A DNA stretch of 23,190 nucleotides from Escherichia coli (GCF_003334815.1 NZ_QOWO01000050.1), one strand, 5' to 3'; shown: positions 3,488 through 22,972, counted from the first letter of the stretch. Notes: a model not told the origin generated them from the sequence alone. Program-made: numbers and translations.

Positions 3488-4597
<1,110 letters not shown>

Positions 4598-15243: not shown

Positions 15244-16389
15244 ATGAAGATTGTCATTGCGCCAGACTCTTTTAAAGAGAGCTTAAGTGCAGAAAAATGT
15301 TGTCAGGCAATTAAAGCCGGGTTTTCGACCCTCTTTCCCGATGCGAACTATATCTGTTTGCCGATAGCGGATGGCGGCGAAGGGACGGTGGATGCGATGG
15401 TCGCCGCGACGGGCGGCAACATCGTGACGCTTGAAGTCTGCGGGCCGATGGGCGAAAAAGTGAATGCTTTTTATGGCCTTACCGGCGACGGGAAAACGGC
15501 GGTGATTGAGATGGCGGCAGCAAGTGGCCTGATGCTGGTCGCGCCTGAAAAGCGTAATCCGTTGCTGGCCTCCAGTTTTGGTACGGGGGAGTTAATTCGT
15601 CATGCGCTGGATAACGACATTCGCCATATTATTCTCGGCATTGGCGGCAGTGCGACGGTCGACGGCGGTATGGGCATGGCGCAGGCGCTCGGTGTGCGTT
15701 TCCTTGATGCCGACGGTCAGGCGCTGGCGGCAAACGGTGGTAATTTAGCGCGCGTGGCAAGCATTGAGATGGATGAATGCGATCCGCGTCTGGCGAATTG
15801 CCATATTGAAGTAGCATGTGACGTTGATAACCCGCTGGTAGGGGCACGCGGCGCGGCGGCGGTGTTTGGCCCGCAAAAAGGGGCAACGCCGGAGATGGTC
15901 GAAGAACTTGAACAGGGGCTGCAAAATTACGCCCGTGTTTTACAACAGCAAACTGAAATTAATGTCTGCCAGATGGCGGGCGGCGGCGCTGCGGGCGGTA
16001 TGGGTATTGCGGCGGCGGTATTTCTCAATGCGGATATTAAACCGGGCATTGAAATTGTGTTGAATGCGGTCAATCTTGCGCAGGCAGTGCAGGGCGCAGC
16101 ACTGGTGATTACCGGGGAAGGGCGCATCGACTCGCAAACGGCAGGCGGTAAAGCGCCGCTGGGTGTGGCGTCGGTGGCGAAGCAGTTTAATGTACCGGTG
16201 ATTGGGATTGCTGGCGTATTGGGTGATGGCGTGGAAGTGGTGCACCAGTACGGCATTGACGCGGTATTCAGCATTTTGCCTCGTCTGGCACCTTTAGCCG
16301 AAGTGCTCGCCAGCGGTGAAACCAATCTCTTCAACAGCGCGCGAAATATTGCCTGCGCCATTAAAATAGGTCAGGGAATTAAAAACTAA
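15244..16389 (+). CDS. glxK: Glycerate 2-kinase
   Basis: Track ORF starts at TTG 15238; the ATG at 15244 ([14 protein letters not shown]...) with RBS AAGGA gives 381 aa; matches the glycerate kinase family. Confidence 0.9.
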
Positions 16390-16407
16390 CCCTTACCTTT
16401 AAAGCGG

Positions 16408-16539
16408 ATGCGATTTATATCGCATAAGAGTGCAGTACTCATGCCGGATGCGGCATGAGTACCATATCCTTCCTGAAAATCGCGCAAATTCTATATATTG
16501 CAGAGATCATGTAGGCCTGATAAGCGAAGCGCATCAGGC
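16408..16539. repeat. Cluster of REP/BIME-like palindromic units in the glxK-allE convergent intergenic region
   Basis: Three palindromes by eye: ATGCGAT-TTAT-ATCGCAT (about 16408-16425); a perfect 12-bp stem GTACTCATGCCG-GATG-CGGCATGAGTAC (about 16435-16462) containing the REP-like core GCCGGATGCGGC; and GTAGGCCTGATAAGCGAAGCGCATCAGGC (16511-16539), a classical REP consensus in reverse orientation. Confidence 0.6.
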
Positions 16540-18669: not shown

Positions 18670-19719
18670 TTATTGCGCAAAGGGATTTTTCGTTTCGTAT
18701 GACGTGTTATAAAGCGCGTCGGAAATTAAATACTGGTAAATATCATCAACAATTTCGATGCCTTCGACGGCGGCTTTGCGTTGTTTAATATCCTGATCCT
18801 GTCCGGGATAATAAACCTGATTAAAACCGGGCGCGGGGGTAATGGCATTTAATTCGCGCATGGTCTGGCTAAGATGTTGACGGAATAATTCGCTGGAGGA
18901 GAAAAAGTTCGGATTAATAACTATATGTAATTGCCCCAAATTACGCCCTGCGTGTAAATCGTCATACATCGAACTAACCTGTCGCCCGAACGGTAAGCCG
19001 AGTAAGACGCCTGAGAGGACGTCAATCATCATCATCAGGCCATACCCTTTTGGCCCGGCGGCGGGGAGCAGAGCATGTACCGCGAACGGATCGGTTGTTG
19101 GTACACCGTTTTTATCGACCGCCCAGGTATCCGGGATAGACATATTACGCGAGCGGGCGTCGAGCACTTTTCCCCATGCCTGTACGGTAGTCGCCATATC
19201 AAAGGTAAGGATCTCGTCGCCTTCTCCCGGCGCGGCAAAGGCCAGGGGGTTAGTACCGTAGTAAATTTCCGCGCCGCCAAACGGCACCACCATTGGATCG
19301 GACTGGCACATCGAAATGCCAATGAATCCGGCGCGGGCTGCCTGCTGCACAAAATAAGAGATTGCGCCGCTGTGACCCATCCGGCTGATACCGACCACCG
19401 CAACGCCATTTTGCTGGGCGGTTTTGATGGCATGTTCCATACCCATTTTCGCCGCGACCTGTCCGGCGGCATTGTCGGCATGTAAAATTGCCGAGCACGG
19501 CCCGGTTTCCTCAAGACGAAACTCCGGTTCGCGGTTGGTGCCGCCTTTTGAAATGCGTTCCGCGTAGTATTCCACGCGCACCGCGCCATGAGAGTGGATC
19601 CCTCTGGCATCGGCGTAAACCAATACTTCAGCCACGGTTGCAGCGTGCTCACGTTTTAACCCAGCCTGGCAGAGTTTATTCTCAATTAGCTGGTGGAGTG
19701 TTTCCCGACTGATTTTCAT
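18670..19719 (-). CDS. allD: Ureidoglycolate dehydrogenase (NAD-dependent, Ldh_2 family)
   Basis: 349-aa ORF with ATG at 19717-19719; matches AllD; first gene of the minus-strand allDCE operon. Confidence 0.9.
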   Translation of the reverse strand: MKISRETLHQLIENKLCQAGLKREHAATVAEVLVYADARGIHSHGAVRVEYYAERISKGGTNREPEFRLEETGPCSAILHADNAAGQVAAKMGMEHAIKTAQQNGVAVVGISRMGHSGAISYFVQQAARAGFIGISMCQSDPMVVPFGGAEIYYGTNPLAFAAPGEGDEILTFDMATTVQAWGKVLDARSRNMSIPDTWAVDKNGVPTTDPFAVHALLPAAGPKGYGLMMMIDVLSGVLLGLPFGRQVSSMYDDLHAGRNLGQLHIVINPNFFSSSELFRQHLSQTMRELNAITPAPGFNQVYYPGQDQDIKQRKAAVEGIEIVDDIYQYLISDALYNTSYETKNPFAQ

Positions 19720-19778
19720 CTGTCTTCCTTTTTAACGACGGTGTGAAGCATGACTGCAATTAACATACAGGGAAAATA

Positions 19779-19798
19779 TCTGGATTATGTGATCCAGA
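19779..19798. promoter_or_regulatory. 20-bp palindrome TCTGGAT-TATGTG-ATCCAGA upstream of allD; candidate regulator (possibly AllS) binding site
   Basis: Perfect 7-bp inverted-repeat arms with a 6-bp spacer, ~60 nt upstream of the allD start in the allD/fdrA divergent region. Assignment to AllS is inference only. Confidence 0.35.
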
Positions 19799-19932
19799 CA
19801 GGCAAGAAAATATAGTTAGAATTTATTTGATAATCCGCTCACTTTTAACCTGATTTTTAAAACAACCACGCTTATTAAAAAATAATGAGTAATAGCCTGG
19901 CGGTTATTTGAATTCTTTTGTTAATAATTCCT

Positions 19933-19948
19933 GTGTGATATTCATCAC
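19933..19948. promoter_or_regulatory. CRP-like site TGTGA-tattca-TCACc upstream of fdrA
   Basis: Matches the CRP core TGTGA-N6-TCACA at 9 of 10 core positions, ~95 nt upstream of the fdrA ATG. Confidence 0.35.
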
Positions 19949-20035
19949 CTTATTTACTCGTTGTCATCGATACCGTAATCGCCACATTAACACTGCTCGT
20001 GCAATTGCCATGGGTGCAATTTTTAAGGAGTTGTT

Positions 20036-21703
20036 ATGATCCACGCCTTTATTAAAAAAGGGTGTTTTCAGGATTCGGTCAGTTTAATGATTATTTCACG
20101 AAAACTCAGCGAATCAGAAAATGTTGATGATGTTTCCGTAATGATGGGTACGCCCGCCAATAAAGCGTTATTAGATACCACAGGTTTCTGGCATGACGAT
20201 TTTAATAACGCCACGCCGAACGATATTTGCGTGGCAATTCGTAGCGAAGCGGCGGATGCGGGGATCGCGCAGGCGATTATGCAGCAGCTTGAAGAGGCGC
20301 TAAAACAACTGGCGCAGGGGTCAGGCAGCAGCCAGGCGTTGACGCAGGTGCGTCGCTGGGACAGTGCCTGTCAGAAATTACCCGACGCCAGTCTGGCGCT
20401 GATTTCAGTGGCTGGCGAGTATGCGGCGGAGCTGGCGAACCAGGCGCTGGATCGCAACCTCAACGTGATGATGTTCTCCGATAACGTCACGCTGGAAGAT
20501 GAAATCCAACTTAAAAGCCGCGCGCGGGAAAAAGGCTTGCTGGTGATGGGGCCGGACTGCGGTACGTCGATGATTGCCGGCACGCCGCTGGCTTTTGCTA
20601 ACGTGATGCCGGAAGGCAATATTGGCGTCATTGGCGCTTCCGGTACCGGGATTCAGGAACTGTGTTCGCAGATTGCGCTGGCAGGGGAGGGAATTACTCA
20701 CGCGATTGGCCTTGGCGGGCGCGACCTCAGCCGTGAAGTGGGCGGCATCAGTGCGCTGACGGCGCTGGAAATGCTCAGTGCAGACGAGAAAAGCGAAGTG
20801 CTGGCATTTGTTTCAAAACCGCCTGCCGAAGCTGTGCGTCTGAAAATTGTTAATGCCATGAAAGCAACCGGCAAACCGACGGTGGCGCTGTTTTTAGGTT
20901 ATACCCCGGCGGTGGCCCGCGACGAGAATGTCTGGTTTGCCTCCTCGCTGGATGAGGCCGCACGCCTGGCTTGCCTGCTTTCACGCGTTACGGCGCGACG
21001 TAACGCGATAACGCCTGCCAGCAGCGGATTTATTTGCGGTTTGTATACCGGCGGTACCCTGGCTGCCGAAGCGGCGGGATTACTTGCTGGACACCTTGGC
21101 GTGGAAGCCGACGATACCCATCATCACGGCATGATGCTCGACGCCGATGGTCACCAGATTATTGACCTCGGCGATGATTTCTACACCGTCGGGCGTCCCC
21201 ATCCGATGATCGACCCAGCCTTACGCAATCAGTTAATTGCCGATCTCGGCGCTAAACCGCAAGTGCGCGTATTGCTGCTTGATGTCGTGATTGGCTTCGG
21301 TGTGACCGCCGATCCTGCCGCCTCGCTGGTAAGCGCCTGGCAAAAAGCCTGTGCTGCGCGTTCAGACAATCAACCACTGTATGCCATTGCCACGGTGACA
21401 GGCACTGAACGTGACCCGCAATGCCGCTCGCAGCAAATCGCCACGCTGGAAGATGCGGGGATCGCGGTAGTGAGTTCGCTGCCGGAAGCCACCTTGCTGG
21501 CGGCGGCACTGATTCGTCCGCTTTCGCCTGCCACTCAGCAACACACACCGTCATTACTGGAAAACGTCGCCGTGATTAACATCGGATTACGCAGCTTTGC
21601 GCTGGAGCTACAAAGCGCCAGCAAACCGGTTGTGCATTACCAATGGTCGCCAGTCGCCGGCGGCAATAAAAAACTGGCTCGTTTATTAGAACGTTTGCAA
21701 TAA
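20036..21703 (+). CDS. fdrA: FdrA protein (CoA-binding / succinyl-CoA-synthetase-alpha-like fold family), function unresolved
   Basis: 555-aa ORF with RBS AAGGAG; N-terminus MIHAFIKKGCFQDSVSLMIISRKL matches FdrA; first gene of the fdrA-ylbE-ylbF operon. Confidence 0.88.
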   Translation: MIHAFIKKGCFQDSVSLMIISRKLSESENVDDVSVMMGTPANKALLDTTGFWHDDFNNATPNDICVAIRSEAADAGIAQAIMQQLEEALKQLAQGSGSSQALTQVRRWDSACQKLPDASLALISVAGEYAAELANQALDRNLNVMMFSDNVTLEDEIQLKSRAREKGLLVMGPDCGTSMIAGTPLAFANVMPEGNIGVIGASGTGIQELCSQIALAGEGITHAIGLGGRDLSREVGGISALTALEMLSADEKSEVLAFVSKPPAEAVRLKIVNAMKATGKPTVALFLGYTPAVARDENVWFASSLDEAARLACLLSRVTARRNAITPASSGFICGLYTGGTLAAEAAGLLAGHLGVEADDTHHHGMMLDADGHQIIDLGDDFYTVGRPHPMIDPALRNQLIADLGAKPQVRVLLLDVVIGFGVTADPAASLVSAWQKACAARSDNQPLYAIATVTGTERDPQCRSQQIATLEDAGIAVVSSLPEATLLAAALIRPLSPATQQHTPSLLENVAVINIGLRSFALELQSASKPVVHYQWSPVAGGNKKLARLLERLQ

Positions 21704-21712
21704 GGGGTTCCC

Positions 21713-22972
21713 ATGTTTACATCAGTGGCGCAAGCCAATGCTGCGGTTATCGAACAAATTCGTCGCGCTCGTCCACACTGGCTGGATGTGCAACCGGCTT
21801 CTTCACTTATCAGCGAACTAAACCAGGGCAAAACACTGCTTCACGCCGGGCCGCCAATGCGCTGGCAGGAGATGACCGGACCTATGAAAGGGGCGTGCGT
21901 GGGCGCATGTCTGTTCGAAGGTTGGGCGAAAGATGAAGCGCAGGCGCTGGCAATACTGGAGCAGGGGGAAGTGAACTTCATTCCTTGTCACCATGTGAAT
22001 GCCGTCGGGCCAATGGGCGGTATTACTTCTGCCAGTATGCCGATGCTGGTGGTCGAGAACGTGACCGACGGCAACCGGGCGTACTGCAACCTCAACGAAG
22101 GTATCGGCAAAGTGATGCGTTTTGGCGCTTATGGCGAAGATGTCCTGACTCGCCATCGCTGGATGCGCGATGTGTTAATGCCAGTATTAAGCGCGGCGCT
22201 GGGGCGCATGGAGCACGGTATCGATCTCACGGCGATGATGGCGCAGGGCATTACCATGGGCGATGAGTTCCATCAACGCAATATTGCTTCCTCAGCACTG
22301 TTAATGCGTACGCTGGCCCCACAAATTGCTCGCCTCGATCATGATAAACAGCACATTGCGGAAGTGATGGATTTCCTCAGCGTGACCGATCAGTTCTTCC
22401 TCAACCTCGCGATGGCCTACTGCAAGGCGGCGATGGATGCTGGCGCGATGATCCGCGCAGGCAGCATCGTTACGGCTATGACCCGCAACGGCAATATGTT
22501 CGGGATTCGGGTAAGCGGGCTGGGTGAACGCTGGTTTACTGCGCCTGTAAACACTCCGCAAGGTCTGTTTTTCACCGGCTTCTCGCAGGAGCAGGCGAAC
22601 CCGGATATGGGCGATAGCGCGATTACCGAAACCTTTGGTATCGGAGGTGCGGCAATGATCGCAGCGCCTGGCGTAACGCGCTTTGTCGGTGCGGGTGGCA
22701 TGGAAGCGGCCAGGGCGGTATCTGAAGAGATGGCGGAAATTTACCTTGAACGCAATATGCAGTTGCAGATCCCAAGCTGGGATTTTCAGGGCGCCTGCCT
22801 GGGACTGGACATTCGTCGCGTGGTAGAAACCGGTATTACGCCACTCATCAATACCGGTATCGCCCATAAAGAGGCGGGGATCGGGCAGATTGGCGCAGGC
22901 ACCGTGCGGGCACCGCTGGCGTGTTTTGAACAGGCGCTGGAAGCACTGGCTGAAAGCATGGGGATTGGTTGA
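21713..22972 (+). CDS. ylbE: DUF1116-family protein YlbE, intact 419 aa
   Basis: ORF starts 10 nt after the fdrA stop with RBS AAGGGG; continuous 419-aa frame with no frameshift in this window. Confidence 0.85.

Follow-up and report, generated by a model that had tools for sequence, protein, structure and literature searches.

A conserved CRP site in the divergent allD-fdrA control region of Escherichia coli and its predicted class II placement at the allF promoter

In Escherichia coli, the 316 bp between the divergent genes allD and fdrA (allF) serve both oxamate-branch allantoin operons, allDCE and allFGHK, as a common control region. Our analysis supports the presence in it of a genuine, conserved CRP site, TGTGA-N6-TCACC, to which binding has been shown in vitro only. 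What the sequence comparison adds to this known in-vitro site is its deep conservation and its placement, relative to a predicted allF promoter, at a class II position. The palindrome that catches the eye on the allD side is, as judged from the related sequences, an Escherichia-only coincidence, whose left arm would be a lineage-specific accident on a conserved half-site. The control region is ordinary and for the most part already explained and described, and the modest and testable addition would be catabolite control of the oxamate branch.

The analysis covered a stretch of 23,190 bp, which is called the window here and in whose coordinates all positions are given. The window holds the E. 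coli allantoin cluster; a 1-kb query found matches of 95-100% identity in 5405 of 5426 complete E. coli genomes, and allD and fdrA are annotated on either side of the gap in the matching genomes. The function of the allF product as an oxamic transcarbamylase subunit is taken from earlier work (PMC11326118). The original prediction had described the gap as a 316-bp AT-rich divergent control region, which is borne out by the open reading frames, the annotation and a G+C content of 35%. The intergenic region differs from that of K-12 MG1655 at three positions, none of them within a motif, and K-12 positions are obtained by adding 526644 to the window position. Table 1 shows the coordinates of the features.

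Table 1. Features of the allD-fdrA region in window coordinates, with the basis of each assignment.
Feature	Position	Strand	Basis and remarks
allD, ureidoglycolate dehydrogenase, first gene of allDCE	18670-19719	-	ORF and E. coli annotation
Candidate allD -10 hexamer TATGTT	19762-19767	-	Conserved spacing; predicted start ~19755
Dyad TCTGGAT-TATGTG-ATCCAGA (TCTGGAT-N6-ATCCAGA)	19779-19798		Escherichia only
TGTGATC, CRP-type half-site	19788-19794		Invariant in 35/35 intergenic regions
Conserved block TATAGTTAGAATTTATTTGATAATCC	19811-19836		Alignment; about -56 to -81 of predicted allD start
allFp -203/-144, shifted by AllS lysate	19833-19892		PMC12535856; holds TTTTAA-N8-TTAAAA, 19843-19862
allFp -142/-83, shifted by phosphorylated-ArcA lysate	19894-19953		PMC12535856; also holds CRP site
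CRP site, core TGTGA-TATTCA-TCACC	19934-19949 (core); 19931-19952 (22-bp site); centre 19941.5		Consensus match, PWM, conservation, literature Kd
Candidate allF (fdrA) -10 hexamer TACCGT	19971-19976	+	Conserved spacing from CRP core; predicted start ~19983
Direct repeat GTGCAATT around CCATGG	19999-20006 and 20014-20021	+	Found in 15% of shuffles
fdrA (= allF), oxamic transcarbamylase subunit, first gene of allFGHK	20036-21703	+	ORF and annotation; function PMC11326118

General searches of the gap returned little. None of the small open reading frames in it (21-43 aa) had support, the sole match in an Rfam covariance search was a spurious one to the eukaryotic SCARNA7 (21 bits against a gathering score of 65), and a simple sigma-70 scan gave plus-strand hits only, none of which fitted the conserved geometry described below. 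The bloodstream isolate E. coli elppa5 has an internal stop in allD, which is therefore annotated there as pseudogenic, and its intergenic motifs are intact. A genomic-SELEX peak of NtrC has been reported at K-12 547,672 and assigned to fdrA > ylbF (Shimada et al. 2021, PMC8743547); this position corresponds to about 21028 in the window, inside fdrA, where the allF operon may contain an internal site regulated by nitrogen.

Conservation was determined from 80 allD loci, taken from one genome per species, among which fdrA is divergently adjacent in 34 Enterobacterales loci; the intergenic regions of these 34 loci and that of the window give the 35 regions compared. An alignment was made for 17 Enterobacteriaceae, ungapped stacks anchored on each motif were made for all 35 regions, and nine Escherichia sequences were used for the comparison within the genus. 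The 35 species are related, so a count such as 31 of 35 does not represent that many independent events. The expectation by chance was obtained from 2000 dinucleotide shuffles of the intergenic region. Within Escherichia (n = 9), no change is seen in the right arm of the dyad, in the CRP site or in either candidate -10 hexamer, and the variation clusters in 19836-19897 and 19956-19964.

In Firmicutes (Paenibacillus, Bacillus, Sporosarcina and others), a homologue of fdrA with about 45-50% identity lies directly downstream of allD on the same strand, which indicates that the linkage of the two genes spans phyla and that the divergent promoter region is specific to Enterobacterales. Two loci labelled 'Sporobacter termitidis MAG' and 'Chryseobacterium sp. 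18061' are of the Enterobacteriaceae type, with 83% AllD identity and the same intergenic layout; these contigs are probably mis-binned or contaminated assemblies.

The CRP core matches the consensus at 9 of 10 positions and is the sole match of at least 9/10 in the 23,190-bp window; a match of this quality arose in 36 of the 2000 shuffles of the intergenic region (1.8%). With a position weight matrix (PWM) for 20-mers built from 39 other sites of the Footprint-seq table, the site scores 18.2 bits and ranks first among 23,171 positions, the median of the training set being 16.7 bits. All 35 intergenic regions, which range from Escherichia to Providencia, Budvicia and Pragia, retain GTGA-N6-TCA, with the 6-bp spacer free to vary; the half-site TCAC is found in 32 of the 35, and TCAAC takes its place in Pragia and Providencia.

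The same DNA appears in Table 1 of the Footprint-seq study, where tgTGTGAtattcaTCACCtta is listed for allD/fdrA at NC_000913.3:546586 with an estimated Kd of ~9.8 nM (Wang, Stringer & Wade 2026, PMC12871828, bioRxiv 10.64898/2026.01.16.700004). The coordinates were checked, and the listed position is window 19941.5, the centre of the CRP-like site that the original prediction had named. The site is one of 37 novel high-affinity CRP sites of that study and lies >500 bp from any described site (PMC12871828); being called novel, it is absent from the earlier ChIP and RegulonDB lists. The predicted motif is therefore real and lies about 95 nt from fdrA as proposed (94.5 nt from the core centre to the ATG), with its position corrected from 19933-19948 to that in Table 1, and its reading as a CRP site is upheld by the nanomolar in-vitro Kd, the top PWM score and the retention of its half-sites across Enterobacterales. 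In the literature search for CRP or cAMP in connection with allD/fdrA, the Footprint-seq table was the only source, and no crp, cya or glucose work on allF or allD was found; a search for AllS at the allD promoter likewise gave no hit.

The next-best PWM match in the window, ATCATGATAAACAGCACATT at 22338-22357 (13.8 bits), is inside an open reading frame downstream of fdrA, and another, GATGCGATTTATATCGCATA at 16407-16426 (13.5 bits), is in the gap between convergent open reading frames ending at 16389 and 16617. In E. coli TUM9812, an IS1A element is inserted at 19946-19954, at the right edge of the CRP site; the insertion comprises 777 bp including a 9-bp target duplication, CACCTTATT. It parts the CRP site from the candidate allF -10 hexamer, which makes this strain a natural promoter-disruption mutant.

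The position of the CRP site relative to a promoter was examined through the spacing between the core and -10-like hexamers. A hexamer TAnnnT begins exactly 21 nt after the CRP core in 31 of the 35 regions and 20 nt after it in the remaining four, and at all other offsets from 10 to 34 nt, for both promoters, the counts of TAnnnT are 0-4. In E. coli this hexamer is TACCGT, which is proposed as a -10 element from its conservation and matches TATAAT at only three of six positions. The 21-nt spacing would place CRP at -41.5 of the predicted allF start, which is the class II geometry, and no recognisable -35 element is found at the corresponding place. Taken with the deep conservation, the class II placement makes allF the likely target of the CRP site.

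Further downstream, in the predicted allF leader, the TGCAATT direct repeat flanking CCATGG that had been pointed out in the original prediction is present 5' of the fdrA Shine-Dalgarno sequence (TGCAATT at 20000-20006 and 20015-20021, CCATGG at 20008-20013, and AAGGAG at 20025-20030, just 3' of the repeat). An 8-mer direct repeat within 30 nt arose in 302 of 2000 shuffles, which indicates that the repeat is unremarkable on its own. It can alternatively be read as an inverted repeat, AATTGC (20003-20008) and GCAATT (20016-20021). The repeat is kept in Escherichia, Citrobacter, Klebsiella, Raoultella and Superficieibacter with no covariation, and it is absent from Buttiauxella, Atlantibacter and Serratia; the fold of the predicted leader is no better than that of its shuffles (z = 0.54). 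Sigma-54 and NtrC readings of TGCAATTGCCATGGGTGCAAT were rejected on inspection, as TGCA-N11-TGCA is unlike the NtrC spacing and GG-N10-GC is found on neither strand.

A similar arrangement is seen on the allD side. Conservation of the dyad is confined to the element TGTGATC, which in the predicted allD promoter falls at about -33 to -39, and the bases after this element are often C/T-A/G-G-A. On the allD strand, TAnnnT lies exactly 20 nt after GATCACA in 33 of the 35 regions, with no other offset counted more than once, and the candidate allD -10 hexamer is again proposed from its conservation. In Enterobacteriaceae the two TGTGA elements are 146 bp apart. The allD-side spacing gives -40.5 and not -41.5, and in E. 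coli the element scores 1.2 bits as a full CRP site, with a second half-site, CAGGC, that matches at none of five positions. In most other genera, it scores 6-13.6 bits and is usually the second-best CRP match in the region, with low scores also in a few others, such as Citrobacter werkmanii, Superficieibacter and Pantoea. From these scores, CRP binding at the E. coli allD-side element appears doubtful. TGTGATC may be a weak or ancestral CRP site, or it may be where AllS makes a promoter-proximal contact, its recognition site being the conserved block. The element also includes a GATC, the target of Dam methylation, and all 35 species share this site at the predicted allD -35 region.

The dyad that surrounds TGTGATC in E. 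coli had been described as a perfect 20-bp palindrome. Its position in Table 1 and its distance of 60 nt from the allD ATG are as described, and its perfection is not: the 7-bp arms are perfect, the 6-bp centre is not self-complementary, and 8 of 10 base pairs are symmetric. An inverted repeat with 7-bp arms and a loop of 0-12 nt occurred at least once in 595 of 2000 shuffles (30%), so that the dyad is no more than is expected by chance. Every genus outside Escherichia has unrelated sequence in place of the left arm, TCTGGAT. Within Escherichia the arm differs by 19780 C>T in E. coli strain no107 and by 19779 T>A in E. whittamii, neither change being compensated.

These observations bear on two functions that the dyad could have. 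LysR-type proteins bind dyads, typically at boxes with a T-N11-A register, and the dyad, upstream of allD, would occupy about -24 to -43 in the predicted promoter, where a LysR activation site can sit; as AllS, a LysR-type activator, activates allDCE (Rintoul et al. 2002, as cited in PMC12535856), the dyad had been taken for the AllS operator of allD. The evidence argues against this reading, which we regard as improbable. The dyad is at least 35 bp outside the only fragment for which an AllS shift is reported in the papers examined, and is also outside the PRODORIC AllS motif near 19855. It is of even length with its axis between two bases, and consequently no T-N11-A is in register: the symmetric T/A pairs are T-N6-A, T-N14-A and T-N18-A, and the sole T-N11-A (19786-19798) is off-axis. 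In addition to its chance expectation and its uncompensated variation within Escherichia, the left arm is unconserved in enterobacteria that have the same divergent allD-fdrA layout, including Klebsiella, where allS is documented. Less probable still is a role of the dyad as an RNA hairpin, whether as attenuator, terminator or stabiliser in the leader of allD or in ending read-through transcription on the minus strand. A scan found the dyad to be terminator-like on the minus strand, with nine pairs followed by the U-rich tail UAUUUUCCC, and as minus-strand RNA it folds at -10.9 kcal/mol (z = -4.0). However, the conserved allD -10-like hexamer is downstream of the dyad, which would put the hairpin in promoter DNA and not in the transcript; the stem has three G-C pairs, the tail has just four consecutive U residues, no Rfam family matches the dyad, and the left arm is absent from all relatives outside Escherichia with no compensatory change. 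The position upstream of a conserved -10 hexamer and the lack of conservation together make an RNA role unlikely. The practical value of the analysis is mostly negative, in that the palindrome is not worth pursuing as an AllS operator.

Between the two promoters, the block at 19811-19836 is the most conserved intergenic stretch across Enterobacteriaceae; it is partly kept in Serratia and Erwinia and is invariant within Escherichia except for its last base. Its position fits a LysR recognition site of the allD promoter as predicted here. IHF and FNR were rejected as readings of the block, since Klebsiella does not conserve the critical bases (the C of ATCAA; TTGAT), and an ArcA direct-repeat reading (AGTTAG, then ATTTGA 11 bp on) is weak.

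Published work gives positions for AllS and ArcA in the region. PRODORIC motifs were assigned, by distance from the allF ATG, to AllS at -181 (about 19855), to ArcA at -117, -134 and -163 (about 19919, 19902 and 19873), to OxyR at -224 (about 19812) and to SoxS at -237 (about 19799) (Kim & Kim 2025, PMC12535856). An allF'-'lacZ fusion was expressed only under anaerobic conditions with allantoin, at ~4,000-4,100 Miller units, and fell to ~100 Miller units in allS or arcA deletion mutants; deletion of allR left it unaffected, and deletions of oxyR and soxS raised it slightly, with no clear effect (PMC12535856). These cells were grown on glycerol, and the gel shifts were made with crude lysates containing AllS or phosphorylated ArcA (PMC12535856). 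As shown in Table 1, the ArcA fragment also holds the CRP site, and in a crude lysate the contributions of ArcA and CRP are therefore not separated. Growth on glycerol is itself a condition with active CRP-cAMP. The pentamer TAATA at 19922-19926, within the ArcA fragment, is conserved.

The stretch 19836-19897, which holds the PRODORIC AllS motif and most of the AllS-shifted fragment, is the most variable one, both within E. coli and between genera; for example, 19847-19850 changes from AACC to GGTT in strain E69, and 19853 changes from A to G or T in many strains. In the operator of a conserved regulator, such high variability would be unexpected. The original prediction had also suggested that each operon has its own inputs. 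This proposal is contradicted by the published requirement for AllS, which is common to both operons (for allDCE, Rintoul et al. 2002, as cited there), by that for ArcA, which is required for allF and proposed for allD (PMC12535856), and by the mirror-image layout of the two predicted promoters.

The significance of the two conserved TGTGA elements can be read in other ways than the one that we favour. On the allF side, CRP might bind in vitro with no regulatory role, or with a role that is not of class II, such as repression or a bending of the DNA that aids distant AllS or ArcA. The site is missing from earlier in-vivo collections and is called novel (PMC12871828), AllS and ArcA already explain the roughly 40-fold regulation, and many in-vitro CRP sites have no known function. 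In contrast, the half-sites and the exact 21-nt spacing to the -10-like hexamer are kept across 35 Enterobacterales while the surroundings are scrambled, a pattern not easily accounted for unless the position relative to RNA polymerase is under selection, and the predicted allF promoter has no recognisable -35 element at the corresponding position. We consider this alternative unlikely. On the allD side, AllS might use TGTGATC as its activation-site contact and the conserved block as its recognition site, or TGTGATC might be bound by another factor; in either case CRP would act on allF only. The block is the best conserved part of the region and, at about -56 to -81 with TGTGATC at -33 to -39, forms the classic two-part LysR layout; software matched a matrix of the LysR type (OxyR) at ~19812, the E. 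coli element is poor as a CRP site, and the PRODORIC AllS region is poorly conserved. Against these points, the fragment shifted by the AllS lysate includes the last 4 bp of the block only, TGTGATC with its A/T-rich 5' flank fits the extended CRP half-site consensus AAATGTGATCT, its conservation is stricter than is usual for LysR activation sites, and the full element reaches up to 13.6 bits and second rank in most genera. This second alternative is a possibility of some substance, although we would not bet on it.

The preferred reading is that the shared region contains two back-to-back activator-dependent sigma-70 promoters of the same layout and with shared inputs, with a class II CRP site at allF and with TGTGATC, not the palindrome, as the functional element at allD; we hold this joint model to be moderately probable. 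In this model, CRP centred 41.5 bp upstream of the predicted allF start, with TACCGT as the -10 hexamer, would serve as a class II activator that replaces the -35 element, and it would work with ArcA-P, at sites near 19902-19919, and with AllS, in the fragment 19833-19892. The allF operon would then fire only without a preferred carbon source, without oxygen, and with allS de-repressed by allantoin or glyoxylate. On the allD side, the conserved TGTGATC, 20 nt upstream of TATGTT, would be functional at the place of a class II CRP half-site or of a LysR activation site. The transcription starts, the class II mechanism and the binder of TGTGATC are what we infer from the conserved geometry. A bolder form, which we put forward tentatively and with less than even confidence, is that allDCE and allFGHK have mirror-image class II CRP-type promoters, conserved across Enterobacterales and gated by carbon (CRP), oxygen (ArcA) and induction (AllS via AllR); as a corollary, the true AllS recognition site would be the block at 19811-19836 and not the PRODORIC site at ~19855.

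Compared with known class II CRP promoters (galP1 and the melAB type, where CRP at -41.5 lies over the -35 region), the predicted allF promoter is alike in its 22-bp TGTGA-N6-TCAC site with nanomolar in-vitro CRP binding, in a centre 41.5 bp from the predicted start and in the lack of a -35 element. It differs in that it also needs AllS and ArcA-P, is anaerobic-specific and has a weak -10 hexamer (TACCGT), its start being a predicted one. The allD-side element differs further, since it is too degenerate in E. coli to be called a CRP site; the galP1 CRP site combines a good promoter-proximal half-site with a poor distal half, which the allD-side element resembles. Compared with divergent regions controlled by LysR-type regulators, in which a recognition site lies at about -65 and an activation site at about -35, the region is alike in that AllS is of the LysR type and is required for both operons, in that it is AT-rich with several weak dyads, and in that a conserved block is found at the recognition-site position of the predicted allD promoter. 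It differs in that the dyad of Table 1 is outside the AllS-shifted fragment, unconserved and with no in-register T-N11-A, and in that allS is located elsewhere in the cluster and is not a divergent neighbour.

Two published descriptions concern the same DNA. The allF model with dual activation by AllS and ArcA (Kim & Kim 2025, J Microbiol Biotechnol 35:e2507057) covers motifs that are all within 19720-20035; it includes neither the CRP site nor the promoter geometry, and the probe used there for ArcA, -142/-83, takes in the CRP site unknowingly. The SoxS and OxyR motifs predicted in that model overlap with the edge of the dyad and with the conserved block, and the corresponding deletions are without clear effect. 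The Footprint-seq list (10.64898/2026.01.16.700004) has exactly the same CRP sequence and reports binding only, without a target promoter, a position class, conservation or physiology.

The function of the allF operon was reportedly assigned in 2022-2024 and its regulatory model in 2025, a model that has no input from carbon status. The present result refines, in an incremental way, a known regulon of the best-studied bacterium, for which CRP binding is already public, and it would help to interpret the published ArcA gel shift because the probe contains the CRP site. If the joint model is true, a class II CRP site found Enterobacterales-wide would add catabolite control to the anaerobic salvage of purine nitrogen, a pathway that has been linked to gut colonisation and to the virulence of hypervirulent Klebsiella.
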